DNA of 41,732 nucleotides from Acidothermaceae bacterium (GCA_035653855.1 DASRZB010000223.1:1-41732); one strand, 5' to 3'; shown: positions 8,336-37,685, counted from the first letter of the stretch. Notes: a model not told the origin generated them from the letters alone. Made by a program: numbers and translations.

Positions 8336-9127
8336 ATGGCAGCCCGATTGGCGGTAGTGACCGGCGCGAGTCGCGGTATCGGACGCGCGTTAACGGAGCG
8401 GCTTGCTTCGGCCGGCCAGACCGTGGCGGCGATCGCGCGGTCCGCTGCTGACCTCGAGGACCTGGCTGCTGCGACCGGCGCCATTCCCTTCCCGCTGGAC
8501 GTCAGTGACCCGGCCGGTGTTGAGGACGTCTTCACGCGCATTCTCGCCGAGCTCGGCGTTCCCGATCTGGTGGTGAACAACGCGGCGATCTCCGGCGGCA
8601 GCGGTCTGACCTGGGAACTGCCCGAGCAGGACTGGTGGCGCGTCTTGGAGATCAACGTTCGGGGCACCTATCTATGCACACGCGCAGTTCTGCCGGCCAT
8701 GATGGCCCGCGGTAGCGGCCGGATCGTGAACGTGTCATCTGGTGCGGCGACGTATCCAGTAGGCCTCGACAATGACGGTCAACTGACCTCGGCCTACATG
8801 GCAAGCAAGGCCGCAGTGAACCGCTTCACCGAAGCCGTCGCGGGGGAGTGCTTTAGTGCTGGAGTACGGGTGTTCTCGATGTCGCCAGGAATGGTCAAGA
8901 CAGACATGACCGCCGAGGTGTACCCCGAGATCTGGGACGCCGAAGACGACTGGACGCCGATCGACTTGCCCGTCGACCTGATCGTGGATCTCGACGCCGG
9001 AATGCTCGACGCCCTGTCGGGCCGCTACTTCCGTGCCGCCGTCGATGACTGGCGCTCGTTGGCCGCTCGAGCAGCCGCCGTCATCGACCTCGATACCCAC
9101 GCGCTTCGCGTGCGTGCGCTGCCCTAG
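8336..9127 (+). CDS. short-chain dehydrogenase/reductase (SDR)
   Basis: MAARLAVVTGASRGIGRA (TGxxxGIG), NNAAI, and YMASKAAV (the YxxxK catalytic motif). Confidence 0.9.
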   Translation: MAARLAVVTGASRGIGRALTERLASAGQTVAAIARSAADLEDLAAATGAIPFPLDVSDPAGVEDVFTRILAELGVPDLVVNNAAISGGSGLTWELPEQDWWRVLEINVRGTYLCTRAVLPAMMARGSGRIVNVSSGAATYPVGLDNDGQLTSAYMASKAAVNRFTEAVAGECFSAGVRVFSMSPGMVKTDMTAEVYPEIWDAEDDWTPIDLPVDLIVDLDAGMLDALSGRYFRAAVDDWRSLAARAAAVIDLDTHALRVRALP

Positions 9128-9177
9128 CAGGGATCGCTCAAGCCTTTCATTGCAATGTTGCTAATTGCCGCCGTACC

Positions 9178-9213
9178 CTCTAGCCGTTGAGGTCCTATAA
9201 CGGCTATTCTCCC
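9178..9213 (+). promoter_or_regulatory. 36-bp conserved operator-like element, copy A (TAGCCGTT-N10-AACGGCTA dyad overlapping a TATTCT -10-like hexamer)
   Basis: The sequence CTCTAGCCGTTGAGGTCCTATAACGGCTATTCTCCC is 33/36 identical to 21312-21347. The arms at 9181-9188 and 9199-9206 are perfectly complementary. It lies in the non-coding gap upstream of the ABC importer genes. Confidence 0.6.
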
Positions 9214-9341
9214 AAACCTGGATGCCGGTGCTCCGTTCAGCTCTGGCGGCAGGACGCGCCTAACGGCGTGGCCAAGGCACGAGGTAAGCCGTGGAGGCGG
9301 ACTCCCCTGGTAGATCGAACCGGACTGAAAGGAACGGATTT

Positions 9342-10760
9342 ATGAATCGACGCTTCTTAACGGCAGCCGTCGCGGCCGCGGCCGCGTTGGGGCTTGCCGC
9401 GTGCTGGAGCAGTTCAAGCAATAAGAGCGCACCCAGCAGCGCGGGTACGACAACTGCCGCCAGTTCGGCGGCGGCCGCTAGCTCTGCCGCGGCCCCCAGC
9501 ACCGCCCCAGCTAGCTCGGCCCCGGCCGCCAGTTCAGCTCCGGCCGCGAGTACGCCCCAGAGTCTGACGGTCCAGACCACTGCCTACTACGAACCGCTGG
9601 AAAGGGCCGTCGGCACGCAACTTGAGGCGCAGAACCCGGGCCTCAAGATCACCTACCAACAGGTCAGTGCCCAGCAGGAGACCAGCACGAACCTGCAGGT
9701 CGTGACGTCAAGCTCCGCCCCCGACGTGGCCGACACGCCGATCAACGGCAACGTCTACCCGCAGCTGATCAAGTCCAACCAGCTGCTCCCGCTGGACGAC
9801 GTCTGGACTGCCGACAGCCTGCAAGAAGGCTACGGCGCATCCGTCGCCAACTCCTTGAAGGTGAACGGAACGGCGTACGTCGTCGACTTCAGCAACGTCT
9901 ACTACGGTTTCGCGTGGTACGACAAGGACATCTTCGCGAAGCTAGGCATCCCCGACCCGGTCAACCACTCGATTGCCACGATGGCTGACCTGAAGAAGAT
10001 CACGGACGCGTTGCGCAAGGGTGGCGACCAGCCGTTGCTGATCCCCGGCGGCGGAGAGCAGTACTGGAACTGGATGACGGACGCATTCCTGCCAACGTCG
10101 GCAACGACGGACCAGTTCAACAACTACATTACGAACTTCAACCCCAACGTGCCGGTGACGGTCAGCTACGCGGATCCCGAATTCGCCGCCACGTTCGACC
10201 GGTTGAAGGAGATGTACAACGACAAGATGTTCCAAGACGGTGTGCTCGGCATGAACAACGCGTCGACCCAGGCGCTGTTCGCGTCCGGCAAGGCTGGCAT
10301 GATCATGGGACATGCACTGACTCCCAACGCCGTCGACAAGCTCGCAAACAAGACGTTGAATCTCGATTGGGTGCTGCTGCCCCCGATCAACGCCAACCAG
10401 CCGTCGTTGCCCATCGTCTACAACGGAAACACGTTCTCGATTCCGAAGAACGCGAAGAACCCTGACATGGCGAAGAAGTACCTCGAGCTTCTTCTGAGTC
10501 CTGGTATCCAGCAGCAGATTCCGACCCTGGTGTCTGGCGCAATGCCCGCCACGAAGGTGTCAGGCACTGTCCAGGACCCGTACGGGCTGCTCAAGTACGT
10601 TGCTGACAATGGAGATTACGTAGGCTGGGCAGCGGTCACGCCCGGTGACCTCAACCAGATCGACTCCAAAGTTCAGGCGGTCCTGACCGGCCAGGCGACT
10701 TCCAAGCAGGTTGGCCAGCAACTCGACGCCGTCGTGAAGAAGCTCCGCGCAGGTTCGTAA
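9342..10760 (+). CDS. ABC transporter substrate-binding lipoprotein (family 1 / CUT1 carbohydrate type)
   Basis: Track ORF starts at 9291. I prefer ATG 9342 (MNRRFLTAAVAAAAALGLAAC...), which has AAAGGAA upstream, a signal peptide and a LAAC lipobox. An Ala/Ser/Pro linker follows. Overall length and the two downstream permease genes fit a CUT1 system. Confidence 0.85.
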   Translation: MNRRFLTAAVAAAAALGLAACWSSSSNKSAPSSAGTTTAASSAAAASSAAAPSTAPASSAPAASSAPAASTPQSLTVQTTAYYEPLERAVGTQLEAQNPGLKITYQQVSAQQETSTNLQVVTSSSAPDVADTPINGNVYPQLIKSNQLLPLDDVWTADSLQEGYGASVANSLKVNGTAYVVDFSNVYYGFAWYDKDIFAKLGIPDPVNHSIATMADLKKITDALRKGGDQPLLIPGGGEQYWNWMTDAFLPTSATTDQFNNYITNFNPNVPVTVSYADPEFAATFDRLKEMYNDKMFQDGVLGMNNASTQALFASGKAGMIMGHALTPNAVDKLANKTLNLDWVLLPPINANQPSLPIVYNGNTFSIPKNAKNPDMAKKYLELLLSPGIQQQIPTLVSGAMPATKVSGTVQDPYGLLKYVADNGDYVGWAAVTPGDLNQIDSKVQAVLTGQATSKQVGQQLDAVVKKLRAGS

Positions 10761-10773
10761 CCCACATCGCGAA

Positions 10774-10804
10774 GTCGCCGGTGGTCCAACGGGCCACCGG
10801 CGAC
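10774..10804 (+). promoter_or_regulatory. intercistronic GC-rich stem-loop between the binding-protein and permease genes
   Basis: GTCGCCGGTGG (10774-10784) pairs perfectly with CCACCGGCGAC (10794-10804) across a 9-nt loop. No U-tract follows, so it is more likely an mRNA-stabilising or attenuating hairpin than a full terminator. Confidence 0.5.
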
Positions 10805-10829
10805 ACGCCGAGCAAGGGCACATCAAACT

Positions 10830-11738
10830 GTGACATCCACGAAGGTAATCCGGCCCGAGGGTGGCCGGCGGAACAAGCTGACTTCGCCGTTGGCGATACT
10901 GCTCAGTCTTCCCGCAATCGTGGGGATCGTTGTGGTGTATCTCGTGCCGTTCATCGGCACGATCCGGATTTCGTTCTCGAACTGGGCCGGCGTTGGCCGA
11001 CTCAAGCCGGCCGGCACGGCGAACTATCGCGGCCTGCTCTCGGACTCCACCTTCTACTACTCCCTGCGTATCACGCTGCTGTTCGCGGTGGTGATCACAG
11101 TCGGAGTCATGGTGCTCGCTACTGGCACGGCGATGGCGGTGCGGAACGGACGCGTAGCAAACGTGCTGCGAGTGATCTGGTTCCTGCCGGCGATCGCGCC
11201 ACCCACGGCGATCGCCGTGTATTGGGGCTTTAGCTTCCAGCCGATCTCGGGAGCCGTCAACGGGGTTCTCGGCAAGCTCGGTCTCGGCAGCGGACACGCC
11301 TGGCTGGCCTCGCTTAACGAGGCCCGTTGGGCGGTCATGGGCGTGGCGATCTGGGCGGGCGTGGCGTTTCCGTTCCTGGTGCTCGTCGGTGCGATTGCTC
11401 GGATTTCACCGAATCTGTATGAAGCCGCCGACCTCGACGGTGCTCAGAGATGGCGGCAGGCCTGGCACATCACGCTGCCGATGATCCAACCCGTGCTGGT
11501 GATGATCACCGTGCTGGAACTGATATGGAACTTCAACTCCTTCACGTTCATCTGGGCGATGACCAGGGGCGGCCCGGTGTCGAGTACGTCCACGCTGCCG
11601 GTGCGCCTGTACTCCGATGCGTTCGTACACTTCGATTTCGGCGAGGCGTCGGCAATCGGAGTGATGGCCAGCGTGGTGCTGGTTGCTGCGGGACTTATCG
11701 GTCTTCGCTTCGCTAACTCTCGCAGCGATACCGCATGA
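10830..11738 (+). CDS. ABC transporter permease (MalF/CUT1-type)
   Basis: 302-aa multi-TM protein with a binding-protein-dependent transport signature region (AADLDGAQRWRQAWHITLPMIQP). GTG start. Confidence 0.85.
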   Translation: MTSTKVIRPEGGRRNKLTSPLAILLSLPAIVGIVVVYLVPFIGTIRISFSNWAGVGRLKPAGTANYRGLLSDSTFYYSLRITLLFAVVITVGVMVLATGTAMAVRNGRVANVLRVIWFLPAIAPPTAIAVYWGFSFQPISGAVNGVLGKLGLGSGHAWLASLNEARWAVMGVAIWAGVAFPFLVLVGAIARISPNLYEAADLDGAQRWRQAWHITLPMIQPVLVMITVLELIWNFNSFTFIWAMTRGGPVSSTSTLPVRLYSDAFVHFDFGEASAIGVMASVVLVAAGLIGLRFANSRSDTA

Positions 11739-12574
11739 AACTCCGTTCCTTGCCCGGCGCTGGCAGCTCCGCGCTCGTCAAGCTCGTGTGGACCCTCATC
11801 ATCCTGGTCCCGTTCATCTCGATGATCCTGCTGGCGTTCCGATCGCTTGCAGCCCTTTACAACGACCCGCTCGGCCTTTCCGGCGCCTGGGTTCCAGGGA
11901 ACTTTCGAGAGGCATGGGATGGCCCCCAGGGTGGATCGGGGTTTTCCATCTACGCGCGCAACTCGGTGATCGTCGCGGTCGAGGCGGTGGCGATATCCGC
12001 GGCCTTAGGGTCGTTCGCTGCGTACTTCACGGCGACGCTTGCCCCGAAGTGGCGTCGCCGCGCGATGATCCCAGCTCTAATCGCCCAGACCGTTCCCGGC
12101 ATCGCCTTGGTGATCCCGTTCTTCCAGGCCTTCAACGCGCTCGGCACGCTCAGCAGCCCGGTCGCGCTCGGCGTCCTCTATGGCCTTCTGTGTCTGCCGA
12201 CGACGGTGCTGATCCTCCACGCGTTCTTCGTCGATTTCCCCAGCGACGTACGGGAGGCAGCGGCGATCGACGGCCTCGGCCCGGTCGGGACATTCCTTCG
12301 CATTGTCCTGCCGCTCTCGATCGGATCGTTGGGAACCGTGTCCCTGCTGAACTTGATCTGGGTGTGGGGCGAGACGCTCATCGGCTTGGCCTTGCTTGAG
12401 AACTCGGCTTCTCAGACCATTTCGATCGGGCTGCTCTCGTTCCAAGACAAGTGGCTCGCGAATCCCGGGGCTTTGTTTGCGGGGTTGGCGATGGCGACCG
12501 TTCCCATCACCCTCATCTACCTGATTTTCCACCGTTCGATCAACAGCGGTGTGTCGCTCGGTAACATCCGCTGA
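11735..12574 (+). CDS. ABC transporter permease (MalG/CUT1-type)
   Basis: 279-aa multi-TM protein with EAAAIDGLGPVGTFLRIVLPL (EAA loop). ATGA overlap with the upstream permease gene. No ATPase gene follows. Confidence 0.85.
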   Translation: MKLRSLPGAGSSALVKLVWTLIILVPFISMILLAFRSLAALYNDPLGLSGAWVPGNFREAWDGPQGGSGFSIYARNSVIVAVEAVAISAALGSFAAYFTATLAPKWRRRAMIPALIAQTVPGIALVIPFFQAFNALGTLSSPVALGVLYGLLCLPTTVLILHAFFVDFPSDVREAAAIDGLGPVGTFLRIVLPLSIGSLGTVSLLNLIWVWGETLIGLALLENSASQTISIGLLSFQDKWLANPGALFAGLAMATVPITLIYLIFHRSINSGVSLGNIR

Positions 12575-12577
12575 TCG

Positions 12578-13798
12578 CTACGAGCGCGGAGCGGGTCGAT
12601 CAATTCCCGTATCCGTAACCGGAACTGCCGTGTAACTCAAAGACAGGTACGGAGTTGGAACAGTCCGACGCTCGCGTCGCGCACGCAAGGCTGCCTCCAT
12701 GACGCCGGTTGTTAGCAACGTCCTGGCAATCGGGTAAGGACTGCGGCCGGTCAGCATCAGGCTCTCGATCTGTCGGGTCAAGAAGGTGAAATTGCCGTGT
12801 GCGGGATCGCCGAGCCAGGCTTCCATCGCGATGGTCGTTTCGGGTCCGCGGACAGCGCCGGCGACACGGTGACTCGCCGGCAAGTCGAGGTTGACAACTG
12901 TGAGAGTGGTGCCGTCCAAGTAGTCGACAAGGAAGAGGTCGTCAGCGTTGCTGCCGATGAACGAGATCGGGTCATCGGTCTTGATGGCCAGCGCCTCCAA
13001 TGCCTTCACCAGCAGCTCGGCGTCACGGGGCACGGCTGCAAGCGATGCCGCGATCTTCGATCCGGTGATGGCAGTGACCGCTGCCACGCCGGTCTCGCCG
13101 CCACGCCGACGCTCCAAGAGAGCTTGGACAAATTCAAGGTTGTGGAACCCGCTCATTTCGGTAGGCCGGCAGCCCGGTTCCGATGCCGCGATGCTCACGA
13201 CTGCTGCGCCGGTTACCGGTGAGCCCATCGGCCAGTCGGCACCCTGTGGTATGCGCCACGTCAGCGGCACAGACGAGCCTGCCGACAGCGGAACTCCTAG
13301 GCGGTCGGCATCGGAAACCATGCTGGCCGCATCGATGAAGCTCCAGGCGAGATGCTTGTCAACAAAGACGGGCACCTTCCGGCCTGCGGCGACCATCGCG
13401 GCCACGCTTGCGTCGAACATGCGCCGCCGTGGATAAAGCTTTTGCTCGAACTCACCCCAGCCGTAGTCCCCGTGTTCGCCGATGATCACCACGCCATCGA
13501 CATTCACTCCCGTACCGCCGAGCGAGAGCGCCTCGCCCACGGAGCCGAACAAGGGAATCCCGTGTGAAGTCAGCGTTCTCACGCCTATGTCGATGCACGA
13601 GGTGGGCTCGTTGTCGCTCGAACCGAGTTGCTCGAGATAGACCGATGCGACCTCGATCCGCGCCTGCTGGTGCACGCCGTCCCAGGTATAACCGTCGAGT
13701 AGCCGACCGAGGATGACATCGGCGTGCGACCCCGCGAAGTACACCGAGCACAGCACAGCGACTCGAGGGCGCTCGCCGACGCTAGCGGACATTGACAT
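12578..13798 (-). CDS. hypothetical protein (406 aa); Gfo/Idh/MocA-like layout but no GxGxxG motif
   Basis: Strong GC3 bias. It is the last gene of the minus-strand SDR-mutarotase-dehydratase-M24 unit. The N-terminus (RVAVLCSVYFAGSHADVILGRL...GIPLFGSVGEAL...VDGVVIIGEHGDY) is arranged like a Rossmann-type sugar oxidoreductase, but I see no dinucleotide-binding glycine motif. Function unknown. Confidence 0.6.
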   Translation of the reverse strand: MSMSASVGERPRVAVLCSVYFAGSHADVILGRLLDGYTWDGVHQQARIEVASVYLEQLGSSDNEPTSCIDIGVRTLTSHGIPLFGSVGEALSLGGTGVNVDGVVIIGEHGDYGWGEFEQKLYPRRRMFDASVAAMVAAGRKVPVFVDKHLAWSFIDAASMVSDADRLGVPLSAGSSVPLTWRIPQGADWPMGSPVTGAAVVSIAASEPGCRPTEMSGFHNLEFVQALLERRRGGETGVAAVTAITGSKIAASLAAVPRDAELLVKALEALAIKTDDPISFIGSNADDLFLVDYLDGTTLTVVNLDLPASHRVAGAVRGPETTIAMEAWLGDPAHGNFTFLTRQIESLMLTGRSPYPIARTLLTTGVMEAALRARRERRTVPTPYLSLSYTAVPVTDTGIDRPAPRS

Positions 13799-13852
13799 GA
13801 CTCCTCTTTGATTCGTTCGTCGAATGACGCTGGTTGACCGACAGGACGCCGA

Positions 13853-15025
13853 TCACGTGGCTCGCGGATACTGCATGAACTCCCGCGGGAACTGAGTCAG
13901 GGCCTCGCAGCCGTCGGCCGTGATGAGCACGGTTTCTGAGATGGCGACACCAGCGACGTCTGGGATGAGCACGTTCGGAACCAAGTGAAAGACCATGCCT
14001 GCTTCCAATGGACGCGTCTCCAGATCCTGCAAGCTGTAGATGTGCCCTTCGCCCCAGTCCGGTGGGTAACTAACACCAATGGAGTAGCCGCTTCGGTTGC
14101 GGTGGACATCGCCCCAGCCGGCGGCCTTGATGGCCGCTCGACCAACCTGGTGTACCTGTGCGCCGGTGATGCCGGGTCGGATGGCCGCCATTAGCGCCTC
14201 AAGAGTCTCGGTAACGACGCCCAGCGCCCGTTCAATTATTGGTCGATTCTCGGCGGGAGGCTCGCTCACCGCGCCGATCCGGATGAGGCCAGACCCGTAG
14301 CGGCCAGCGCTGCCGCCGGTCTCGAACCACAGCATGTCGCCTGGTTGCAGCACGCGGCCGCTCCAGGTTTGGTGGGGCATGAATGTACGCGGCCCACTCG
14401 ACACGAACTGCGCAAGACTCGGATACGTCGACCCTGCCGAGATCATGCGGTGGTAGATCGCCGCTGCCACGTCGTCCTCGGTCGCGCCGGGAACCGATGC
14501 TTCGAACGCGGCAGTCATCGCCGCCTCCGTGTATCGGCACGACTGCCGGATCAGGCCGATCTCGGCCGAAGACTTCACCAGCCGCAGTGTTTCCACCAGC
14601 CCGTCTAGCGGAGCCACTCTGTCTCCAAGCCGATCGGCGACGTGGGTAGCAATCGCTGGTGAGACCGCCCACGTCTGCGATTCCGTCCCGATCCGAGTTC
14701 CGAACTTGGCAGCTACGCCCGCGACGACTTCCGCGACGTCTTCGTGATCGAGATATCCAACGGAGTTGGTCACCCATGTCTGAGCCGCAACGTTGGGGGA
14801 CTCAAAGTGCCGGACAACCAGCGCCGGGTCGGAATCAACGGATGCGATCAAACATTGCGGATAGTAGTAGCCGAGGGTGTCGTAGCCCGTCATGTAATAG
14901 ATGTTCTCGGGCGCCCAGCTCAGCAAGGTGTCGATCCCTGCATCGGCCATCGCTGCCTGCAACCTGCGATACCTGTCGCGGTGCTCATCATGTGATATCT
15001 CGAAGTGCATGACTCGGCTGACCAT
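13853..15025 (-). CDS. M24-family metallopeptidase (creatinase / Xaa-Pro aminopeptidase-like)
   Basis: The N-terminal domain resembles the creatinase/prolidase N domain (RYRRLQAAMADAGIDTLLSWAPENIYYMTGYDT). The C-terminal part resembles a pita-bread fold (GDMLWFETGGSAGRYGSGLIR...HRNRSGYSIGV...MVFHLVP). I chose the ATG at 15025 because GAGGA lies 4 nt upstream. ATG 15010 is also possible. Confidence 0.8.
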   Translation of the reverse strand: MVSRVMHFEISHDEHRDRYRRLQAAMADAGIDTLLSWAPENIYYMTGYDTLGYYYPQCLIASVDSDPALVVRHFESPNVAAQTWVTNSVGYLDHEDVAEVVAGVAAKFGTRIGTESQTWAVSPAIATHVADRLGDRVAPLDGLVETLRLVKSSAEIGLIRQSCRYTEAAMTAAFEASVPGATEDDVAAAIYHRMISAGSTYPSLAQFVSSGPRTFMPHQTWSGRVLQPGDMLWFETGGSAGRYGSGLIRIGAVSEPPAENRPIIERALGVVTETLEALMAAIRPGITGAQVHQVGRAAIKAAGWGDVHRNRSGYSIGVSYPPDWGEGHIYSLQDLETRPLEAGMVFHLVPNVLIPDVAGVAISETVLITADGCEALTQFPREFMQYPRAT

Positions 15026-15032
15026 CCAATCC

Positions 15033-16163: not shown

Positions 16164-16176
16164 GGGTGTCGGTTCC

Positions 16177-17225: not shown

Positions 17226-17238
17226 GCGCGCCCTCCCA

Positions 17239-17275
17239 AATACGGTTCCATTACGGCTATATTACGAGGTACGAT
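17239..17275 (+). promoter_or_regulatory. operator-like element, degenerate copy B, with three 11-bp-phased TACGG/TACGA repeats
   Basis: GGTTCCATTACGGCTAT is identical at 14 of 18 ungapped positions to GGTCCTATAACGGCTAT of copy A. TACGG lies at 17241 and 17252, and TACGA at 17263. It sits in the divergent promoter gap between the SDR operon and the SelA-like operon. Confidence 0.4.
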
Positions 17276-21347: not shown

Positions 21348-21350
21348 CTG

Positions 21351-27259: not shown

Positions 27260-27282
27260 GGGACGACGATAAGGAGCATCCT

Positions 27283-28746: not shown

Positions 28747-28859
28747 TTGCTTGCTGCAGGCGCCTAAACGGCCCCAACTAGGTCAGCCCCTTGACGGCAT
28801 TGCAGTTGTCCCCGTCATGTATTTGCCCGAGCACTGCTGCCCAAGGTTGGCGACGGTTC

Positions 28860-30882: not shown

Positions 30883-31445
30883 CGACTGGCCATCTCTTCG
30901 GCACGCTGTCGGTCGCGGTAAGCGGCGGCGTGTACTCGATTGCCGCATGTGCGGCTGTCGCAATAGGCCCGGGAGCGGTTCTTCGAGTTGTCCACCATGA
31001 CGCGATTGCAGTTGGGAGCACCGCAGATCCGTAGCCGATTCGCCTCACCGGAGGCTAACAACACGGCGAGCGCCATCGCGCAGTCGGCATTGATGTGTTC
31101 GGACAGCGATGCATACGGCGGGAAGAAGTGAAAATGAATACCGAAGCCATCGTGGACGACGAGCCGCGGCTCAATCGATGCCGACGCCAGTGTTTGGTTG
31201 ACGAGCGCAATCTTGGTCTCCTCATCGGGAGCAGCGAAGATGGCGAAGAGTCGGCGGCGCACGGTGTGGAGGGTGGCGAGGTCCGCTTGCGTCGGTGGAC
31301 CGACCTCCGTGATCGACCGACTCTCGACGAATGCTCGAACCGCATCGACGGTGCCGAGCTCCTCGGTGGACGCGATGTGTGGGCTGGTATTGATCAGGGC
31401 CGTCAGGGTGCTCAAGATCTGGTCAAGGTGATGCAGCGGACCCAT
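30879..31445 (-). CDS. CGNR zinc-finger (ABATE + zf-CGNR) putative regulatory protein
   Basis: The C-terminus is RICGAPNCNRVMVDNSKNRSRAYCDSRTCGNRVHAAAYRDRQ, the CGNR signature. I prefer ATG 31445 (MGPLHHLDQ..., 188 aa), 16 nt after the creatininase-family stop. Confidence 0.8.
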   Translation of the reverse strand: MGPLHHLDQILSTLTALINTSPHIASTEELGTVDAVRAFVESRSITEVGPPTQADLATLHTVRRRLFAIFAAPDEETKIALVNQTLASASIEPRLVVHDGFGIHFHFFPPYASLSEHINADCAMALAVLLASGEANRLRICGAPNCNRVMVDNSKNRSRAYCDSRTCGNRVHAAAYRDRQRAEEMASR

Positions 31446-31461: not shown

Positions 31462-32238
31462 TCAGGCCGACCGATGAAACGCAATGATGAAGTCCGCAAC
31501 GCTCTCAACGACGCCGGCAAGTACGCGGCTTCCGAGCTCGGCGTCGGCCAGCCGAGCATCGTCTGTACGACCGTCGCTGGATTCCCACAGATCCGGACGA
31601 CGGATGTGCGCTCCGGGGTGCTCCGCAACGCCGAGAGGGGTGGTGGGTTCGGCGTCGGCTGCTCGTTCATCGAGGCGAACCATCTCGGGGAAGAGTGCCA
31701 ACATGATCGATGTTTCGAAATGGCCTGCGTGGCCCGGCATGAGCCCGGGTGGCAGATCGACGGTCTCGAGAAAACTCGCGGCCAACGTCCAATACGAGCC
31801 CACGGCGACATGGACATCGAGCTGCAGCTCATAGCCAAGGCGGTCGGCAGCCAACCGTGCGGCGGCTTCGTTTCCACCGTGTCCGTTCAAGAGAACGACG
31901 CGCCGGAATCCCTCGACAGACAACGTGGTCACAATGTCGGTCAGTACGTTCAGGTACGTCGTCGAGCTGAGGCTTATGGTGCCGCCGAACGGAACGTGAT
32001 GGTGGGCGAATCCAAAAGGCAGGGTTGGCGCCAGCAGGACTGGCTCATGTGCTGCCGCGAGCTCGACGGCTCGCTCCGCGATAGCGGTGACGATTGCGGC
32101 ATCGGTACGAACCGGTAGGTGGTGCGCATGCTGCTCAGTCGAGCCGAGCGGGACCACGACGGTCGCTACGGAGGCGAGCTGGCGAAGGTTGTCGCGCGTC
32201 AGTGAGTCGAAGCGCCAGACGTGATCGGCTATCGCCAC
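31462..32238 (-). CDS. creatininase-family amidohydrolase (creatinine amidohydrolase / MftE-like fold)
   Basis: VVVPLGSTEQHAHHLPVRTDA...VLLNGHGGN... is the creatininase-family pattern. GTG start with GGGGG about 7 nt upstream. Confidence 0.8.
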   Translation of the reverse strand: MAIADHVWRFDSLTRDNLRQLASVATVVVPLGSTEQHAHHLPVRTDAAIVTAIAERAVELAAAHEPVLLAPTLPFGFAHHHVPFGGTISLSSTTYLNVLTDIVTTLSVEGFRRVVLLNGHGGNEAAARLAADRLGYELQLDVHVAVGSYWTLAASFLETVDLPPGLMPGHAGHFETSIMLALFPEMVRLDERAADAEPTTPLGVAEHPGAHIRRPDLWESSDGRTDDARLADAELGSRVLAGVVESVADFIIAFHRSA

Positions 32239-32254
32239 GGGTTACCCCCAATCC

Positions 32255-32299
32255 TGGATATCGCCGTTATGGATATCGACCTCATGGATATCGCCGGAA
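32255..32299 (-). promoter_or_regulatory. three 15-bp-period direct repeats (TGGATATCGnC) carrying operator core copy D
   Basis: The units are TGGATATCGCCGTTA, TGGATATCGACCTCA and TGGATATCGCCGGAA. Read on the minus strand the block is ...TGAGGTCGATATCCATAACGGCGATATCCA. It shares TGAGGTC and ATAACGGC(G/T)AT with the 36-bp element, in the same order. It lies 17 nt upstream of the creatininase-family start codon. Confidence 0.55.
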
Positions 32300-32586
32300 A
32301 CTACGTGCGTCAGGACCAACGCCCGTGATCGCTCCGACACTGTAGGAGCCGCAGTCACTATCGTCAAGGAAGACGCTAAGCGTCGTCTGAACCTGGATTC
32401 GATAACGAACCGAGCACGGATCTACGAGACCGGCTCTGAACGCTTGACGGCCGCGGCTCTCGACTTCTACCGTCTGCGCAGGTGCATAGCCCCTTATGCC
32501 CCTGATGCGGTCGGGCGTCAATGGTGCCCTCTCATCACCGCAGAGCCGCTGTATCCCGACTACTGGACTCAGCTGAAAGGCTGCAC

Positions 32587-33339
32587 GTGTCGTATCGAGC
32601 GGAACTCCATCGGACGGGTACCTACCGTTACCTACCGGCGATCCCTGCCTACTCCGCCGGTGTCGCCGCCGAGCCCGGCTATCTGATCACCGGGCTTCGG
32701 TTTGCGGTGCCTTCGCCCGTCGGTGCGGCGTTCGAACTTCTTGACCGTGAGCTCGAGTCGCGTAGGCTCGATCCATCAGCGATCGTCGGCTTCGAGCTTC
32801 GATCTGCCACGCCGTTCGGCTTCGACAGCTTCAGCGACTTCAACGACGAGTATCGGAAGCTGCTGATAGAGCGTGATCTCCTCGACGGCGATCACAATCC
32901 CGTGGCCCGTACGAACATCTGCCCCGTGCATGGTGCGCCGGCCGAACCGGTGATCCTGTCCGCGTTCGTCGTCCGGCCCGCAGATGATCGGCGTCCTGGC
33001 GACTTCGTCATCGCCGGTTGTGGCGAGGTCGACGGCGCGTTGGCTCCCGAGAACATCGTCGCCTTCCGCGATCTCAGCCAGGACGGGCTGCTCCAGAAAG
33101 CAGAGTTCGTGCTCGGCGAGATCGTTGCGCGGATCGAGGCGCTGGGTGGGACGGCAGATGACCCGAACATCATCAACGAGTACTCGGCGCACGCCATCGA
33201 CGGACTGGCCGAGCTGATCGAGCGCCGCTTACCTGCCGCAAGCCATTCAGGCTATGTGCACTGGTCAGCGCGTCCCCCCGTCGCGGACATTGAGTTCGAG
33301 ATGGATTGCCGCCACATCAGCGAATGGGAAGTGGTGTGA
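32587..33339 (+). CDS. hypothetical protein, possibly a RidA/YjgF-like (CnbZ-type) deaminase fold
   Basis: Track ORF 32521..33339. I prefer GTG 32587, which has GAAAGG 7 nt upstream. The C-terminal SARPPVADIEFEMD resembles the RidA C-terminal PARS.V...VEIE motif. The N-terminal YRYLPAIPAYSAGVAAEPGY reminds me of proteins annotated as 2-amino-5-chloromuconate deaminase. This is a recollection, not a verified match. Confidence 0.45.
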   Translation: MSYRAELHRTGTYRYLPAIPAYSAGVAAEPGYLITGLRFAVPSPVGAAFELLDRELESRRLDPSAIVGFELRSATPFGFDSFSDFNDEYRKLLIERDLLDGDHNPVARTNICPVHGAPAEPVILSAFVVRPADDRRPGDFVIAGCGEVDGALAPENIVAFRDLSQDGLLQKAEFVLGEIVARIEALGGTADDPNIINEYSAHAIDGLAELIERRLPAASHSGYVHWSARPPVADIEFEMDCRHISEWEVV

Positions 33340-33363: not shown

Positions 33364-34515
33364 GTGACGCGACAATCACCGCTCATGCCTGTCGAGGAGG
33401 TGCCAGTCGCTGCCGCCAAGGTCTGGCTCTACACGGGCGCCGAGGGTCCGCCGCTCGCGGCCCACGAAGCAGCGCTGACCCGCTATCTCGCGAATCGCGC
33501 AAACGCATCAGCCGGACGAGACGCGAATGCCGATGTCGAAGCCAGGCTTCGCGAGCGGCTGGCGAGCCTGCTCGGCATGGACACAGGTGACATCGCGCTG
33601 GTCTCTAACTCCAGTGAAGCGATGAACATCGTTGCAGGCACGATTGCCCTGCAGCCCGGCGACAACATCGTGCTGAACGATCTGGAGTTTCCCTCGGTTG
33701 TCCAGCCCTGGTTGCGACTGGCAGGCGAAGGCGTCGTCGACATCAGGTTGGCGGCCCACGTCGGTACCGATTTGCCGACGGAGACGGTGACGTCGCTCAT
33801 CGACGACCGCACGCGGGTCGTCGCGTTCAGTCACGTCAGCTTCAAGTCGGGTTGGCGCCACGACGTGCGCGCGCTGTCGGAGGCGGCCGACAGAGTCGGG
33901 GCGCTGGTGTTGCTCGATGCGACCCAGTCACTGGGTGTGATACCGGTGCCCGCGGACCTCGTCGACGTCGTGGTCTGCAGTTCGTACAAGTGGTTGCTCG
34001 GTGGGCATGGTGTTGGGGTGTTGGCGTGGAATCGACGTCGCCGGCCGTTGCCCGATCCGCCTGCTGTCGGCTGGCGCTCGGTGCCAGACATTTTCACTCG
34101 TGACCGGTTCGAGACGTATCACCTTCACGACGATGCACGACGTTTCGAAACCGGCTTTCCGTCGTTTCCGACCATCTACCTTCTCGACACGTCACTCGGA
34201 ACACTTGGCCGGTACGAGGCGACGGCGGTTCGCGACCACGTGCTCGCCCTGAGCGGCAGGCTGGTGCAAGAACTGTCGACGCGAGGCTGGGAGCTCCTGA
34301 CCCCGGCGGCGCCCGAGCACCGCGCAGGCAACGTCGCAGTCTCCACGCCCAACGGCTCGGAGCTTGCAGGTTTGCTTGCGGAACAGGGGATCCACTGCTG
34401 GGGTGGCGACGGGCGACTGCGGGCTTCCGTGCACTTGTTCAACGGCGACGACGACATCGACAGACTGCTCGCCGCACTCGACGAACTGCCACCGCACCTG
34501 CGTCCGGGCGGGTAG
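33364..34515 (+). CDS. class-V aminotransferase-fold PLP enzyme (cysteine desulfurase / selenocysteine lyase-like)
   Basis: LDATQSLGVIPV...VVCSSYKWLLGGHGVGVL (Lys-PLP in SxxKW). GGGGAGG RBS upstream of GTG 33364. Confidence 0.8.
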   Translation: MTRQSPLMPVEEVPVAAAKVWLYTGAEGPPLAAHEAALTRYLANRANASAGRDANADVEARLRERLASLLGMDTGDIALVSNSSEAMNIVAGTIALQPGDNIVLNDLEFPSVVQPWLRLAGEGVVDIRLAAHVGTDLPTETVTSLIDDRTRVVAFSHVSFKSGWRHDVRALSEAADRVGALVLLDATQSLGVIPVPADLVDVVVCSSYKWLLGGHGVGVLAWNRRRRPLPDPPAVGWRSVPDIFTRDRFETYHLHDDARRFETGFPSFPTIYLLDTSLGTLGRYEATAVRDHVLALSGRLVQELSTRGWELLTPAAPEHRAGNVAVSTPNGSELAGLLAEQGIHCWGGDGRLRASVHLFNGDDDIDRLLAALDELPPHLRPGG

Positions 34516-34531
34516 CGTCGTGCCGAGTCAG

Positions 34532-35605
34532 ATGCGGGTCAGTCTTCGGCCGGTGAAATTCACCGATGCCGAGACCGTCCTTGCGAGCCACGAAGGGCTG
34601 ACGGCCTCGGTGTTCCGTTACCCGACAGGGGTGAAAGGGCTCCGTATTTCCAACGAGTTGGGACACATCTCGGTGTTGCCATTTCAGGGGCAGCAGATCT
34701 GGGATGCCACCTTCGCCGGCCGGTTGCTCACGATGGCTTCGATATTCGCCGGGCCGTATCCGACGCAGGACTACCTCAGTACCTACGGCGCCTTCTTCCT
34801 CCACTGCGGTGTCCTAGGCATGGGCAACCCGGGCCCTTCAGATGTGCACCCATTGAACGGCGAGTTGCCGAACGCACCATATGACGAGGCCTCGCTGCTC
34901 GTCGGCGACGATGAGTCAGGGCCTTACATGGCGCTCACCGGCAACTATCGATATGCCAAAGCCTTCAGCCACCACTACCTCGCTCACCCGACCGTCACGC
35001 TGCACGCCGCGAGCAGTCGCGTGCGCCTCGACATGACGATTCGCAATCTGAGCCGGAAGCACATGGACTTCATGTACTTGGCCCACATCAACTTCAGACC
35101 AGTCGACGGCTCAGTACTGCTTGACACTGCAGGAAAGGGCGGCGAGTCCGTGCGGGTGATCGACGAGGATCTCGACGCGGCGACGCTGGCCAGGATTCGG
35201 ACGGATCCGACGCGCCACAGATTCATCGATTCCGGGACTCGCTACGACCCGGAACTGGTGCTCGGGTTGGAATTGCTCGCAGGCTCGGACGGGCTCGCCC
35301 ACGCGATGCAACTGCACCCGTCCGGCACCGCGGACTTCGTGAGCTACCGCCCAGAGCAGTTCGACCACGCTGTCCGCTGGATCAGCAGAAGTGATGACCG
35401 CGATGCGCTTGGTTTGCTCTTGCCCGCTACTGCGGAGCCCGACGGTTACCTCGCCGAGAAGGCCAAGGGCAACGTCAAAAGCCTTCCCGCGTATGCGGAG
35501 GTGAACTTCTCACTTGAGTTCGGCGCACTGGACACGCATGACGCGACCGGGTTGAAAGACACCATCACTGAGCTCGTCGGAGAGATGACGTCCTATGGCC
35601 GGTGA
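34532..35605 (+). CDS. aldose-1-epimerase-like protein (DUF4432-type)
   Basis: I moved the start to ATG 34532 (or GTG 34520), just after the upstream stop. A beta-rich sequence with ...LHCGVLGMGNPGP...HPLNGELPN..., as in galactose-mutarotase-like domains. The assignment is moderate. Confidence 0.55.
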   Translation: MRVSLRPVKFTDAETVLASHEGLTASVFRYPTGVKGLRISNELGHISVLPFQGQQIWDATFAGRLLTMASIFAGPYPTQDYLSTYGAFFLHCGVLGMGNPGPSDVHPLNGELPNAPYDEASLLVGDDESGPYMALTGNYRYAKAFSHHYLAHPTVTLHAASSRVRLDMTIRNLSRKHMDFMYLAHINFRPVDGSVLLDTAGKGGESVRVIDEDLDAATLARIRTDPTRHRFIDSGTRYDPELVLGLELLAGSDGLAHAMQLHPSGTADFVSYRPEQFDHAVRWISRSDDRDALGLLLPATAEPDGYLAEKAKGNVKSLPAYAEVNFSLEFGALDTHDATGLKDTITELVGEMTSYGR

Positions 35606-36854
35606 AGTGATAGCGGGCGCGCGGGCAATCGAACTCGTGGAATCCATTCTTCACCGGGAACGTGCCGACCTCGAAGATCTAGTGACTGACCTCGTAGGCA
35701 TAGACAGTCAGATTCCGCCGCATGCCGACGAACGCGCGATCGTGCGGTTCGTGTCCGAGACTGCGCTAGCGCTCGGGCTGCCGACGGGCGAGGTGGTCTC
35801 GCGGCACTCGACGCGGCCGAACTTGATCATTCGAATTCCGGGCGTAGGTGGCGGGCCGACGCTCATTCTGAACGGGCACCTCGATACCAAGCCGGTCGGT
35901 GATGCACGGGAGCTGTGGCGAACGCCCCCACTCTCCGCGACTCGCGTCGGTGAGAACATCTTCGGTCTCGGAGTCAGCGACATGAAAGCGGCGGTCGCGT
36001 GCATGGTGTACGCCGCCCACGCCGTCATCGCGTCGGGCACGGCCCTCAGAGGGGATCTGATCCTCGCCCTCGTTGCGGACGAAGAGGCCGGCGCGACCTA
36101 CGGATCCCGATTTGTCGCACCGCTGCTCGCAGGTGTGGCCGACGCGTGCCTCATCGGCGAGCCGTCGGGGTGGGAGCGTGACTGGCAGGGCATGCATCTG
36201 GTGTCCAGAGGCCTCTGCGCATTCCAGGTCCACGTGCAAGGAACGCAGATGCACAGCAGCCTTTCCGATCGGATGCCCTCGGTCAACGCGAATATCGAGA
36301 TGGCCAAGCTGATCCTTCGGCTTAAGCGCGACTTCGACGAAGCCTTCCCGTTGCACGATCCGGCGCCCACTCTCAACGTTGCGGTCACTGCGAGGGGCGG
36401 CGTGTTTTACGGTGTCGTACCCGGTGATGCGGCGTTCGGCTGCGACCTTCGGACTGTCCCGGGCATGGCAGAGGCCGATGTTCACGCGTTCTTCGACGGG
36501 TGGGCTCGCGACCGGAGCGACGAAGTGGGCGGCGCGTCCGTGCGGATCCTGTACGACGACGTTCTCAGCTGGATCCCGAGCTCGGAGATCTCGGCGAAGA
36601 GCGATCTGGTTTCTGCTGTGGAGCAAGCAAGTGCAGCGGTGCTGGGCGCCGCCCCGCCTCCATCGGTCTTTCCGGGCGCGACCGACGCGCCGTGGTTCGA
36701 CGCGGCAGGAATACCGACCCTTGCCTCGTTCGGGCCCGGAATTCTGACGTACTGCCACGGCCCCAACGAGTTCGTGCGAGTGGAAGCCATCCATCAGGCC
36801 GCGCGCATCTATGCGCGAACAGTGCTCGGCTACTGCGGCGTAGGTGCGACGTAG
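35595..36854 (+). CDS. M20A-family metallopeptidase (ArgE/DapE/CPG2-like deacylase)
   Basis: LILNGHLDTKPVGD...GLGVSDMKAAVA...LVADEEAGATYGS...GATDA.... These are the canonical M20 metal ligands and catalytic D/E residues. Confidence 0.85.
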   Translation: MAGEVIAGARAIELVESILHRERADLEDLVTDLVGIDSQIPPHADERAIVRFVSETALALGLPTGEVVSRHSTRPNLIIRIPGVGGGPTLILNGHLDTKPVGDARELWRTPPLSATRVGENIFGLGVSDMKAAVACMVYAAHAVIASGTALRGDLILALVADEEAGATYGSRFVAPLLAGVADACLIGEPSGWERDWQGMHLVSRGLCAFQVHVQGTQMHSSLSDRMPSVNANIEMAKLILRLKRDFDEAFPLHDPAPTLNVAVTARGGVFYGVVPGDAAFGCDLRTVPGMAEADVHAFFDGWARDRSDEVGGASVRILYDDVLSWIPSSEISAKSDLVSAVEQASAAVLGAAPPPSVFPGATDAPWFDAAGIPTLASFGPGILTYCHGPNEFVRVEAIHQAARIYARTVLGYCGVGAT

Positions 36855-37685
36855 GTGGACCAGTTCGCCGACGCGCACCTCCATCTGTTCACCAACGGCT
36901 TTCGCGGGCGGGGCGGAAGCAGCCCGGCCGGGCGCGGTCGCGAGGTCGACGCGTACGAGGTGCTCGCCCGGCGGCATGGCATCGTCGCGGGCCTTGTCAT
37001 CGGATACGAAGGCGAGGGAATCGATCCCGACAACAACTCTTACATCCGATCCCTCGCTGCGACACACCCGTGGATGTCGACAGTGGCGGACGTGTCGGCG
37101 GATGCCGCGCCCGATCCGATTCGGCTCGACCGACTCCTCAGCCTCGGTCACCGAGGGATCGCGTTGTACGTCGCGGATGCCGAGTCCGCGGCCGCTGTCA
37201 GCTCGTGGCCGACGGAGAACTGGCGTGTCTTGGAAGCGCGCAACGCGATCGTGTCAGTAAACGCCGGGCCGGGCGGGATACGCGGGCTGGTCAACGTCGT
37301 CGAGCGAGCATCTGGATGCACGTTCCTCTTTTCCCATCTCGGCGATCCCGGTCGCTTCGCCCAGCCGCCAAGTGCTGACGACGCCGCCCATCGAATCGGT
37401 GCGCTGTTACGGCTGGCCCGAAACGACAACGTGTACGTGAAAGTCTCGGGTTTGTACGCCATCAGCGATCCAGCGAATGCCTACCCGCACGAAGCGGCTT
37501 GGCCCTTCATCGACGTAGTCCTTCAGAAATTCGGACCAGATCACTGCCTGTGGGGTTCGGACTTCAGCCCGTGCCTGGACGACGTCTCGTTCGAGCAGGT
37601 GATCCGCAACCCCGTGCTCGAAGGACTTCCGGCCGCCGACTACGACCGAGTCATGGGCGGCAATCTGATAAGCCTGCTGCGCTAA
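36855..37685 (+). CDS. amidohydrolase_2-type TIM-barrel metal-dependent hydrolase
   Basis: FADAHLHLF (HxH) ... FSHLG ... CLWGSDFSP (the terminal WGSD motif). GTG start directly after the upstream TAG. Confidence 0.75.
   Translation: MDQFADAHLHLFTNGFRGRGGSSPAGRGREVDAYEVLARRHGIVAGLVIGYEGEGIDPDNNSYIRSLAATHPWMSTVADVSADAAPDPIRLDRLLSLGHRGIALYVADAESAAAVSSWPTENWRVLEARNAIVSVNAGPGGIRGLVNVVERASGCTFLFSHLGDPGRFAQPPSADDAAHRIGALLRLARNDNVYVKVSGLYAISDPANAYPHEAAWPFIDVVLQKFGPDHCLWGSDFSPCLDDVSFEQVIRNPVLEGLPAADYDRVMGGNLISLLR

Follow-up and report, generated by a model that had tools for sequence, protein, structure and literature searches.

A contig of 41,732 nucleotides (41.7 kb, ~64% GC) from a soil metagenome, assigned to an Acidothermaceae bacterium (GCA_035653855.1 DASRZB010000223.1:1-41732) and called the window here over its whole length, carries between positions 8336 and 37685 a block of 28 genes whose junctions are short or overlapping and whose intergenic gaps are too small for any further gene. 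Its nearest named protein relative (85% identity) comes from a metagenome-assembled genome (MAG) of Galbitalea sp. (Microbacteriaceae). The block is a composite catabolic island made from two gene sets, A and B, that are found repeatedly in soil Actinobacteria and, in part, in Chloroflexota. We regard it as very probably a conserved catabolic system whose genes are functionally linked and that includes a regulon of G15, a regulator encoded within it. Open reading frame (ORF) listing and Pfam divide the 28 genes into seven to eight strand-defined units, several gene starts (including those of M24 and MR_MLE) having been adjusted by comparison with homologues. Set A consists of the following genes.

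9342-10760, plus strand: CUT1-type solute-binding lipoprotein (SBP_bac_1; PF01547, 108 bits; lipobox LAAC)
10830-11738 and 11735-12574, plus strand: two ABC permeases (PF00528 matches for both)
15033-16163, minus strand: enolase-superfamily acid-sugar dehydratase (MR_MLE; MR_MLE_N/C)
16177-16518, minus strand: RhaM-family mutarotase (PF05336, 61.4 bits, cut-off 23.4)
16515-17225, minus strand: short-chain dehydrogenase/reductase (SDR), candidate sugar 1-dehydrogenase (adh_short, 152 bits)
20013-20933, plus strand: xylose-isomerase-like TIM barrel (AP_endonuc_2; PF01261, 82 bits)
20988-21272, minus strand: small protein of the muconolactone-isomerase family (MIase; PF02426, 95 bits)
21351-22544, plus strand: M20D N-acyl-amino-acid amidohydrolase, the core enzyme (TIGR01891, 266.5 against a cut-off of 153.75)
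22550-23485, plus strand: orphan E1 alpha, thiamine pyrophosphate (TPP)-dependent (E1_dh, 230 bits)
23478-24479, plus strand: orphan E1 beta (Transket_pyr/Transketolase_C)
24510-25883, plus strand: G15, three-domain transcription regulator (predicted structure)
30127-30882, minus strand: second SDR (adh_short_C2, 155 bits)
36855-37685, plus strand: Amidohydro_2 protein of the COG3618 type, candidate sugar lactonase (PF04909, 71 bits)

The genes of set B are these.

12578-13798, minus strand: G5, divergent Gfo/Idh/MocA-fold protein (predicted structure)
17397-18566, plus strand: SelA/DgaE-like pyridoxal phosphate (PLP) enzyme, candidate amino-aldonate ammonia-lyase (TIGR01437)
18566-20032, plus strand: MFS transporter, DHA2-like (PF07690)
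28860-30164, minus strand: Amidohydro_1 enzyme of the amidohydrolase superfamily (PF01979, weak, 35 bits)
30879-31445, minus strand: ABATE/zf-CGNR putative regulator (PF11706 and PF07336)
31462-32238, minus strand: creatininase-family hydrolase (PF02633, 202 bits)
32587-33339, plus strand: CnbZ-like (2-aminomuconate-type) deaminase, candidate enamine/imine deaminase (NCBIfam CnbZ)
33364-34515, plus strand: class V PLP enzyme (PF00266, 128 bits)
34520-35605, plus strand: DUF4432 (aldose-epimerase-like) protein (PF14486, 61 bits)
35595-36854, plus strand: M20A ArgE/DapE-type deacylase (PF01546; TIGR01910, 187 against a cut-off of 218)

Three island genes, G5, G15 and the CnbZ-like gene, have no Pfam match. 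Much of this inventory had been anticipated by the original prediction, a reading of the same DNA that listed about 28 genes in seven units: the CUT1-type importer (SBP_bac_1 and two permeases), for which ORF listing and Pfam find no ATPase gene in the island, the MFS transporter, the three PLP enzymes (SelA/DgaE-like, class III and class V) and the orphan E1 alpha/beta pair are all present, as are the dehydratase, RhaM, DUF4432 protein and TIM barrel of its sugar-acid module. The SDRs number four rather than three (8336, 16515, 30127 and a flank-side one), and the MIase gene (20988-21272, minus strand) had been overlooked; the CGNR regulator, G5 and G15 are further additions to the inventory. 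The families of the seven C-N hydrolases that it counted are all confirmed by Pfam; the Amidohydro_2 protein, however, is probably a lactonase and not a C-N hydrolase, a C-C hydrolase, IolN, belongs to the creatininase family as well, and several of these enzymes may not cleave peptide bonds at all.

We compared the window, by tblastn and precomputed Pfam matches, with the contexts of close and distant G15 homologues from genome and metagenome collections and with those of G5 and M81 homologues (loci labelled L001 and so on), taking as the base for counts 22 nonredundant G15 loci of at least 7 kb each. M20D stands beside G15 at 19 of the 22 loci, E1 alpha and an SDR of the 16515 type each occur at 13, the TIM barrel (including Chloroflexota) and Amidohydro_2 at nine, MR_MLE at eight, RhaM and the second SDR at seven, and the ABC permeases and the MIase gene, divergent from M20D, at six. 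The commonest layout of set A (L001, L015, L016 and L018) is Amidohydro_2 / SDR-RhaM-SDR-MR_MLE, MIase / M20D-E1 alpha-E1 beta-G15 and the ABC importer; a Propionibacteriaceae genome (L008) has a minimal version with Amidohydro_2, SDR / TIM barrel, M20D, E1 alpha, E1 beta and G15, and two Chloroflexota MAGs (L011 and L014) carry M20D / G15, TIM barrel, permeases, solute-binding protein (SBP) and SDR. Subsets of the genes thus recur in Agromyces, the Propionibacteriaceae genome, Dactylosporangium, Jiangella, Asanoa and the Chloroflexota MAGs. A Bacillus cereus plasmid (L048; CP009368.1, 8992-13345) encodes a distant G15-like protein, an M20D (29% identical to that of the window), a small ORF and a 495-residue membrane protein, so the regulator-M20D pair reaches Bacillota. 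Two otherwise unrelated loci (L007, 16594-19245; L016, 1-2106) have Ceramidase_alk (neutral ceramidase-like) and D-Ser-dehydratase-like domains beside set A, and L016 has an Amidohydro_3 D-aminoacylase-like gene there too.

Several of the related loci bear directly on the unity of the block. L003/L004 and L018, in which G15 is 65-69% identical by tblastn, share about 20 of the 28 genes with the island but arrange them differently, in keeping with the original prediction of one linked system; the units do co-occur in related loci. L018 is a long-read-type sequence in which G15, E1 alpha, the TIM barrel, MIase, the permeases and RhaM are split into fragments (11900-21100), probably through frameshift sequencing errors rather than because they are pseudogenes. 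Three actinobacterial genomes carry set B by itself. In Dactylosporangium sp. AC04546 (L017) it forms two blocks, one of DUF4432, Amidohydro_1, class V PLP enzyme, permeases and SBP, and the other of creatininase-like, CGNR, CnbZ-like, G5, DgaE-like, MFS and SDR genes, with proteins 41-78% identical to their window counterparts. Jiangella gansuensis (L019) has M20, an Amidohydro_2-Aminotran_5 fusion, G5, creatininase-like, GFO_IDH, DgaE-like and CGNR genes; the fusion is a single gene of 664 codons (6983-8977) that joins Amidohydro_2 to a class V PLP enzyme, encoded in the window by separate genes of one operon. Asanoa sp. (L046) has, besides set B, homologues of the class III PLP enzyme (64% identity) and of M81 (52% identity), the latter in an Opp-type operon after a creatininase-like gene and next to set B.

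The two sets are interleaved as well as adjacent. L025 (G15 37% identical) joins E1 alpha/beta, G15, Amidohydro_2 and M20D with creatininase-like and G5-like genes, and L027 (G15 35% identical) joins E1 alpha/beta, G15, Amidohydro_2, M20D and MR_MLE with M20A, two Amidohydro_1 genes and GFO_IDH. Within the window, G5 and M24 follow MR_MLE and RhaM, the DgaE-like and MFS genes precede the TIM barrel under a site of the element described below, the second SDR of set A lies inside the creatininase-CGNR-Amidohydro_1 operon, and the set A lactonase candidate lies inside the operon that runs from the CnbZ-like gene to M20A. Shuffled order, conserved content and the gene fusion together argue for functional coupling rather than chance.

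The coupling has a regulatory counterpart, first seen as two near-identical 26-bp sequences upstream of the SBP gene and of M20D. A 29-bp position weight matrix (PWM) built from 13 sites, all from L001, L003, L015 and L016 and with the window sites excluded, finds exactly four sites in the window, scoring 24.6-35.5 bits and all at promoters, with the remainder of the window at 6 bits or less; the top score in a background of 100 Markov-simulated windows was 15.6 bits. The element (consensus ~TTnRGGTCCTATAACGGYTATTCT) has half-sites GGTC and ACGGC about 11 bp apart and ends in a -10-like TATTCT or TATATT.

9184-9212, plus strand: site 1, 34.0 bits, upstream of the SBP gene and the ABC importer operon
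17237-17265, plus strand: site 2, variant AATACGGTnnnATTACGGCTATATTA, 33.7 bits, in the divergent SDR / DgaE-like promoter region
19963-19991, minus strand: site 3, 24.6 bits, just upstream of the TIM barrel gene and within the 3' end of the MFS gene
21318-21346, plus strand: site 4, 35.5 bits, between the MIase and M20D genes

Orthologues of site 1 lie upstream of SBP genes in L001, L003, L015 and L018, even in L001 and L015, where the element precedes an importer of the peptide type (SBP_bac_5). The counterpart of site 2 in relatives lies between Amidohydro_2 and the SDR gene; in L003 and L018 the Amidohydro_2 homologues (51-54% identity) diverge from the SDR-RhaM operon with the element between them. 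L003 (30.6 bits) and L021 (23.1 bits) also have site 3 before the TIM barrel gene, with its orientation preserved, and the position of site 4 is also occupied in L001, L003, L015, L016, L018 and L021. At site 4 the TATTCT ends 6 nucleotides before the GTG start of M20D (6-8 nucleotides in relatives), a spacing that suggests a leaderless M20D transcript. Weaker copies (16-24 bits) in the intergenic DNA by G15 in Agromyces, Chloroflexota and other distant loci indicate that the element tracks G15 across phyla, and we infer that it is bound by G15. Judged from the operons, the regulon of G15 extends over 9184-28746 (units 2-6), so that the shared cis-element of the original prediction is real and conserved but confined to these units rather than common to the whole island. 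The element also stands ahead of a gene for a Pel9A-like beta-helix protein in L016 (11456-11484) and, in L001 (16857-16885), ahead of an operon that encodes two unknown proteins (of 748 and of 393 residues) and then a GH31 glycosidase, which hints at substrate release from a glycan.

G15 has no Pfam or NCBIfam match, and a profile search against the PDB gives weak winged-helix matches only. Its predicted structure (predicted local distance difference test [pLDDT] 86.6) has three domains: an N-terminal domain that superposes on the N-terminal sensor domain of PrpR (2pju; TM-score 0.73-0.75 in Foldseek), a GGDEF/cyclase-like middle domain (Foldseek matches PleD and the PucR-like Rv2242 fragment 9f80) and a C-terminal winged helix (TFE-alpha, MarR and ArsR). 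Judged by these modelled folds, G15 is a ligand-sensing transcription factor. In a library of 1.84 billion cluster representatives, 1176 belong to the family at E<=1e-10; close homologues are few and all metagenomic, and a scan of the genome collection returned distant relatives only (33-36% identity). A large SARP-type regulator (BTAD, AAA_16 and TPR domains; 4360-7461, plus strand), encoded directly upstream of the island, was considered as the element-binding protein and rejected, because relatives keep G15, but not this gene, beside the system.

Outside the two gene sets the block contains the following features.

8336-9127, plus strand: SDR oxidoreductase (Pfam adh_short, 169 bits), peripheral and of doubtful membership
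13853-15010, minus strand: M24 creatinase/prolidase/ectoine-hydrolase-like hydrolase (PF00557 and PF01321, Creatinase_N)
25880-27259, plus strand: class III aminotransferase/aminomutase-like PLP enzyme, accessory (PF00202, 196 bits)
27283-28746, plus strand: M81 (MlrC-like) metallopeptidase, accessory (PF07364, DUF1485, and PF07171, MlrC_C)
32255-32296, no strand: 15-bp tandem repeat, consensus TGGATATCGCCGTCA, 2.8 copies (Tandem Repeats Finder score 63), in the divergent creatininase / CnbZ-like region

Relatives do not retain the 8336 SDR beside the system, and site 1 lies downstream of this gene. The M24 gene adjoins G5 in L003 and L018 and is present at three of the 22 G15 loci, in the closest lineages only (EutD score 156 against a cut-off of 613). 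The class III enzyme, which reaches 369 against a cut-off of 398 for the GSA-aminomutase subfamily, is found in L003, L007 and L046 and is missing in L021. We infer that M24, M81 and the class III enzyme are lineage-specific accessories. The 15-bp repeat may be the operator of another regulator, for example the CGNR protein. It shares GCCGTTAT and GACCTCA with the G15 element by eye, and with a PWM score below 6 bits it was not counted as a G15 site; no counterpart was found in the other loci, and a search for a CGNR operator, in which 32239-32520 was compared with the CGNR-adjacent intergenic DNA of L017, L019 and L046, found only GC-rich 9-mers in common. The CGNR gene itself adjoins creatininase-like, G5 or DgaE-like genes in those three genomes.

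RibD_C (dihydrofolate-reductase-like) genes lie on both flanks of the island (7468-8073, minus strand; 37858-38439, plus strand). We rejected this pair as the mark of a recent duplication or insertion, since the two are 26% identical. Further to the left, 1912-4701 (minus strand) encodes a partner-switching module of two STAS-domain proteins, an anti-sigma-factor-type kinase (HATPase_c_2) and a GAF-SpoIIE/PP2C phosphatase. On the right, 38879-41680 (minus strand) encodes a 933-residue protein with seven fibronectin type III and three CWB2 cell-wall-binding repeats, probably a surface protein; its start is listed at 41680, about 50 bp short of the contig end.

Set A includes an importer of the carbohydrate type and an upper oxidation module that resembles nonphosphorylative 6-deoxyhexose breakdown. 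The SBP has NgcE as its top NCBIfam match (41 bits, cut-off 400), and the permeases are 72-79% identical to their counterparts in L003 and L018 and 64-68% to those of Dactylosporangium. The SDR of the 16515 type adjoins RhaM and diverges from Amidohydro_2 in L001, L003, L015, L016 and L018, and the SDR at 30127 shares 40-45% identity with the one encoded between RhaM and MR_MLE in L001, L003, L015 and L018; among NCBIfam models only generic SDR models match the window SDRs, Lra1 reaching 116 against a cut-off of 400. MR_MLE scores best as galactonate dehydratase (261, cut-off 311) and far lower as L-rhamnonate dehydratase (78, cut-off 393), with 3rr1 as its closest PDB entry, and the sole NCBIfam match of the Amidohydro_2 protein is L-fucono-1,5-lactonase (29 bits, cut-off 400). 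For the TIM barrel there is no NCBIfam match and no PDB sequence match. M20D has YxeP (1ysj) as its closest solved structure. E1 alpha retains an intact TPP motif (GDG...NN), and the E1 equivalog scores lie under their cut-offs (263 against 394; 305 against 321).

Within set B, the DgaE-like enzyme aligns to TIGR01437 over its N-terminal ~230 residues only, with a score of 131 (cut-off 385), reaches 92 against 600 for NF047797, and is 76-78% identical to its homologues in L003 and Dactylosporangium; the MFS gene comes after it in the window, L003 and L017. The class V enzyme and the DUF4432 protein are 62% and 46% identical, respectively, to their L017 homologues. M20A-like genes also occur in L019, L026 and L027 and Amidohydro_1 genes in L017 and L027, and an 86% identical homologue of the window Amidohydro_1 gene lies immediately after G15 in L021. 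The creatininase-like gene falls under all equivalog cut-offs (MftE 123 against 172, creatininase 108 against 235, IolN 77 against 245). G5 has no Pfam, NCBIfam or PDB sequence match, and inspection of its sequence did not reveal the canonical glycine-rich dinucleotide motif; its AlphaFold model (pLDDT 88, predicted TM-score 0.89) matches GenD2, KanD2, GFOR and inositol dehydrogenases in Foldseek (E down to 1.6e-16). It has more than 2100 homologues, every one annotated as hypothetical.

The protein at 32587-33339 had been labelled RidA-like in the original prediction. We detect no Pfam match, including RidA, and no PDB match by single sequence or four-sequence profile, which leaves that label unconfirmable; instead the protein narrowly passes the NCBIfam CnbZ model (222.4, cut-off 220) over its full length. 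The namesake of that model, a 2-amino-5-chloromuconate deaminase by its NCBIfam name, hydrolyses a 2-amino-2-enoate. The context holds no aromatic ring-cleavage genes, so the substrate is unlikely to be the same here. The gene sits beside the DgaE-like gene in L003, is separated from it by G5 alone in L017 and is present in L046. Literature searches on DUF4432, CGNR with creatininase, CnbZ and DgaE returned nothing that bears on this gene set.

The sugar-oxidation module, the invariant M20D, the precedent of GlcNAc1A catabolism (compared below), the deaminase analogues and the D-aminoacylase-like and D-Ser-dehydratase-like genes near set A in relatives lead us to propose a route for an N-acyl amino sugar. 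We hypothesize that G15 senses the substrate or an intermediate resembling an N-acyl-amino acid and turns on the importer and the enzymes. RhaM and the SDR would carry out mutarotation and C1 oxidation, and Amidohydro_2 would open the lactone to yield a 2-acylamido-aldonate, chemically an N-acyl-alpha-amino acid, which M20D could then deacylate, while M20A and Amidohydro_1 might take its place or remove a further acyl group. Next, either the DgaE-like enzyme would catalyse a PLP-dependent alpha,beta-elimination or the enolase-superfamily enzyme a dehydration, and the CnbZ-like protein would hydrolyse the resulting enamine or imine to a 2-keto-3-deoxy acid and ammonia. Finally the second SDR would oxidize this product and E1 alpha/beta would decarboxylate or cleave it in a TPP-dependent step, standing in for the missing aldolase or FAH hydrolase. 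By stereochemistry, sugars with an L-amino-acid-like C2 (L-FucNAc, L-QuiNAc, D-ManNAc) would suit an M20D of the L-aminoacylase type.

We favor the combined account, a conserved linked system that oxidizes N-acylated amino (deoxy)sugars, over the alternatives weighed below, but tentatively, as one that falls only slightly short of being probable. The substrate class considered by itself, an N-acylated amino sugar, probably of a deoxy type, or a small glycan from which such a sugar is released, is possible and on balance somewhat doubtful. More specific still, and unlikely though conceivable, is an undescribed nonphosphorylative route for N-acyl-6-deoxy-amino sugars, such as the L-FucNAc/QuiNAc-type residues of bacterial glycans, in which M20D would handle the oxidized sugar as an N-acyl-L-amino acid, the orphan E1 alpha/beta would cleave the keto-deoxy acid in place of the usual aldolase or FAH hydrolase, and regulators of a new G15 family would act on a phylum-spanning operator. 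Were the proposal true, abundant soil Actinobacteria and Chloroflexota would recycle N-acylated amino (deoxy)sugars in unphosphorylated form, drawing on a carbon and nitrogen pool from bacterial envelopes. It would also give first functions to the G15 regulators (some 1200 clusters when grouped at 50% identity) and the G5 family (more than 2000 homologues), as well as to CnbZ-like proteins outside aromatic pathways, DUF4432 proteins and orphan E1 alpha/beta pairs. The regulator-operator pair provides a testable definition of the regulon and predicts members, such as the Pel9A-like and GH31 proteins of relatives, that would narrow the substrate.

A related possibility is a conjugate as substrate, in which peptide-linked or N-alkylated amino acids are joined to a sugar or sugar acid (a glyco-amino acid, Amadori compound, opine, muropeptide or glycopeptide), with metallopeptidases trimming the peptide and the sugar module using the glycone. 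M24, M20A and M81 do belong to peptidase families, the action of M20D on N-acyl-L-amino acids would take in bonds of the lactyl-L-Ala type, the Asanoa M81 gene occupies an Opp-type operon after a creatininase-like gene by set B, and the importer under the same element is of the carbohydrate-type SBP_bac_1 kind in the window, L003 and L018, but in L001 and L015 of the peptide/opine-type SBP_bac_5 kind and accompanied by Opp-like ATPases. The enzymes typical of such conjugates are nevertheless missing: Pfam detects no FAD amadoriase, opine oxidase, fructosamine kinase or deglycase in the window, nor any MurQ-type etherase, glycoside hydrolase or N-acetylmuramoyl-L-alanine amidase. M24 is moreover confined to the closest lineages, a close relative whose regulator is 91% identical has neither M81 nor the class III enzyme, and the universal core is a single M20D rather than a peptidase set. 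The conjugate, which was the substrate favored in the original prediction, is therefore not established here, and we judge it fairly unlikely.

A number of observations weigh against the N-acyl amino sugar proposal or against the unity of the island, and several of them would be expected if independent pathways, namely plain 6-deoxyhexose oxidation and separate N-acyl-amino-acid, cyclic-amide or amino-acid routes (set B, M24 and M81), merely shared a neighborhood. The Dactylosporangium genome has no set A within 20 kb of its set B. Many G15 loci hold just G15 and M20D. A PWM scan finds no G15-type element at the two right-hand operons, which have their own CGNR regulator and a different repeat. 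In L021, whose G15 is 91% identical, ~35 bp (6884-6918) replaces the ~3.0 kb of the window that holds the class III enzyme and M81 (25824-28863), with DNA ~84% identical on both sides of the indel. Taken together, the element-free right operons, this indel and the lone occurrences of set B suggest that the island may host two related but separable pathways. The other points concern function. Almost every NCBIfam equivalog score falls short of its cut-off, generally by a wide margin; the one clear pass is to a broad subfamily (TIGR01891), and the CnbZ model is passed by 2 bits. What links G15 to the element is co-occurrence, and what links the island to its substrate class is the logic of gene content. 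Should the amine sit at C2, there is no explanation for why a PLP lyase and an enolase-superfamily dehydratase would both be required, and the roles of the TIM barrel, the MIase-like protein, G5, the creatininase-like enzyme, M24 and M81 are guesses. Neither E2 nor E3 is encoded in the window, nor was E2 seen in those related loci for which Pfam gene lists were precomputed, and we know of no citable precedent for the proposed E1 reaction without an E2 partner. The sequencing runs that match the locus are four soil-metagenome DNA runs, with no RNA run among them.

Full independence of the pathways is nonetheless improbable in our view. Genes of sets A and B share operons in the window and are likewise mixed in L003, L018, L025 and L027, the Jiangella fusion joins Amidohydro_2 to a class V PLP enzyme, and a single cis-element heads both the sugar operon and the hydrolase/E1 operon. 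The sugar module also lacks a terminal aldolase or hydrolase and is thus incomplete alone.

The hydrolases could instead degrade a cyclic amidine, guanidine or ureide (kin of ectoine, creatinine or hydantoin), with M24 as ring hydrolase, M20D as deacylase, the class III enzyme as transaminase, the creatininase-like and Amidohydro_1 enzymes acting alongside, and the sugar genes incidental. Creatininase and Amidohydro_1 are indeed families of cyclic-amide hydrolases, and the best named NCBIfam matches are DoeA_2 for M24 (258 bits) and DoeB2 for M20D (200 bits), but these scores are less than half of the cut-offs of 575 and 550. The narrow occurrence of M24 (3 of the 22 G15 loci), the absence of an aspartate-semialdehyde dehydrogenase, the CUT1 type of the importer and the placement of sugar-oxidation genes under the same element as M20D all speak against this explanation, which we consider very improbable. 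Biosynthesis of a natural product containing an amino sugar is extremely improbable, for although the top fold matches of G5 (GenD2 and KanD2) are dehydrogenases of aminoglycoside pathways, the class III enzyme scores 328 bits on the guanitoxin transaminase GntE and a SARP-type regulator lies just upstream, Pfam finds no glycosyltransferase, nucleoside diphosphate-sugar enzyme, nonribosomal peptide synthetase, polyketide synthase or resistance gene in the island, an importer with a binding lipoprotein lies under the shared operator, the mutarotase, lactonase and acid-sugar dehydratase are catabolic hallmarks, and the SARP gene is not conserved adjoining the system.

The N-acyl amino sugar proposal borrows parts of several known systems and matches none of them. 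The original prediction that the block fits no nameable pathway is consistent with the low equivalog scores, and judging from hidden Markov model searches on its ORFs no unit corresponds cleanly to a separate characterised pathway, the known pathways all being incomplete here. The nonphosphorylating L-fucose/L-rhamnose route uses a mutarotase, 1-dehydrogenase, lactonase, dehydratase and SDR (FucM/A/B/C/F/G; LRA1-6) (PMC11199699). These five upper activities are matched by family in the island, and in relatives they form one divergent block; RhaM passes its mutarotase cut-off, whereas the dehydratase scores best, and below the cut-off, as a galactonate rather than a fuconate or rhamnonate dehydratase. 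No FAA_hydrolase or aldolase match occurs among the 28 island genes that could supply the terminal 2-keto-3-deoxy-fuconate/rhamnonate (KDF/KDR) aldolase or FAH-family hydrolase, and the known route lacks M20D, an orphan E1 alpha/beta pair and the TIM barrel, all of which are co-regulated with the island module.

The closest parallel in proposed logic is the catabolism of GlcNAc1A in Pseudoalteromonas, where OngB, OngC, OngD and KdgK, that is, a D-aminoacylase, a PLP-dependent deaminase, a RidA protein and a kinase, lead to 2-keto-3-deoxygluconate (KDG) (PMC9537276). There, as in our proposal, an N-acetyl-amino-aldonate is treated as an N-acyl amino acid, deacylated and then deaminated with PLP and the help of an enamine/imine deaminase-type protein to a 2-keto-3-deoxy acid, a logic that is proven for GlcNAc1A. 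The enzyme families differ. In place of the D-aminoacylase OngB the island has M20D and M20A, its Amidohydro_1 match being weak and no D-aminoacylase model matching; in place of OngC it has the DgaE-like enzyme, D-Ser-dehydratase-domain genes occurring only in the relatives L007 and L016; and in place of the RidA-family OngD it has the CnbZ-like protein. KDG kinase is absent, Pfam finding no PfkB or other kinase family in the island, the regulator is G15 rather than MurR/RpiR, and the island also encodes oxidation from the free sugar.

In Salmonella, the D-glucosaminate operon dgaABCDEF includes DgaE, the D-glucosaminate-6-phosphate ammonia-lyase. The island has in common with it a SelA-related PLP enzyme of the DgaE family in an amino-sugar-acid context, although this enzyme scores under both cut-offs (92 against 600; 131 against 385) and the island lacks a phosphotransferase system, kinase and 2-keto-3-deoxy-6-phosphogluconate (KDPG) aldolase, so that the substrate is presumably unphosphorylated. 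M24 and M20D belong to the same families as DoeA2 and DoeB2 of ectoine degradation (DoeA/DoeB; NF038259 and NF038260), which are their top named matches; equivalents of DoeC and DoeD are missing and M24 lies outside the conserved core. The M81 enzyme, a member of that family by Pfam only, fails the NCBIfam model of the microcystinase MlrC (119 against 999). Among regulators, G15 shares with the PrpR-type sigma-54 activators the N-terminal fold only, lacking the sigma-54 AAA+ module and ending in a winged helix rather than a Fis-type helix-turn-helix (HTH); it has the GGDEF-like middle domain in common with PucR-type regulators, and a MarR/ArsR/TFE-like winged helix in place of the PucR-type HTH, of which none was detected. 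What is new here is a regulator family with a defined operator, a core of M20D and orphan E1, and several uncharacterised families, and in kind the island is best filed as a regulated gene cluster for sugar or amino-sugar catabolism.

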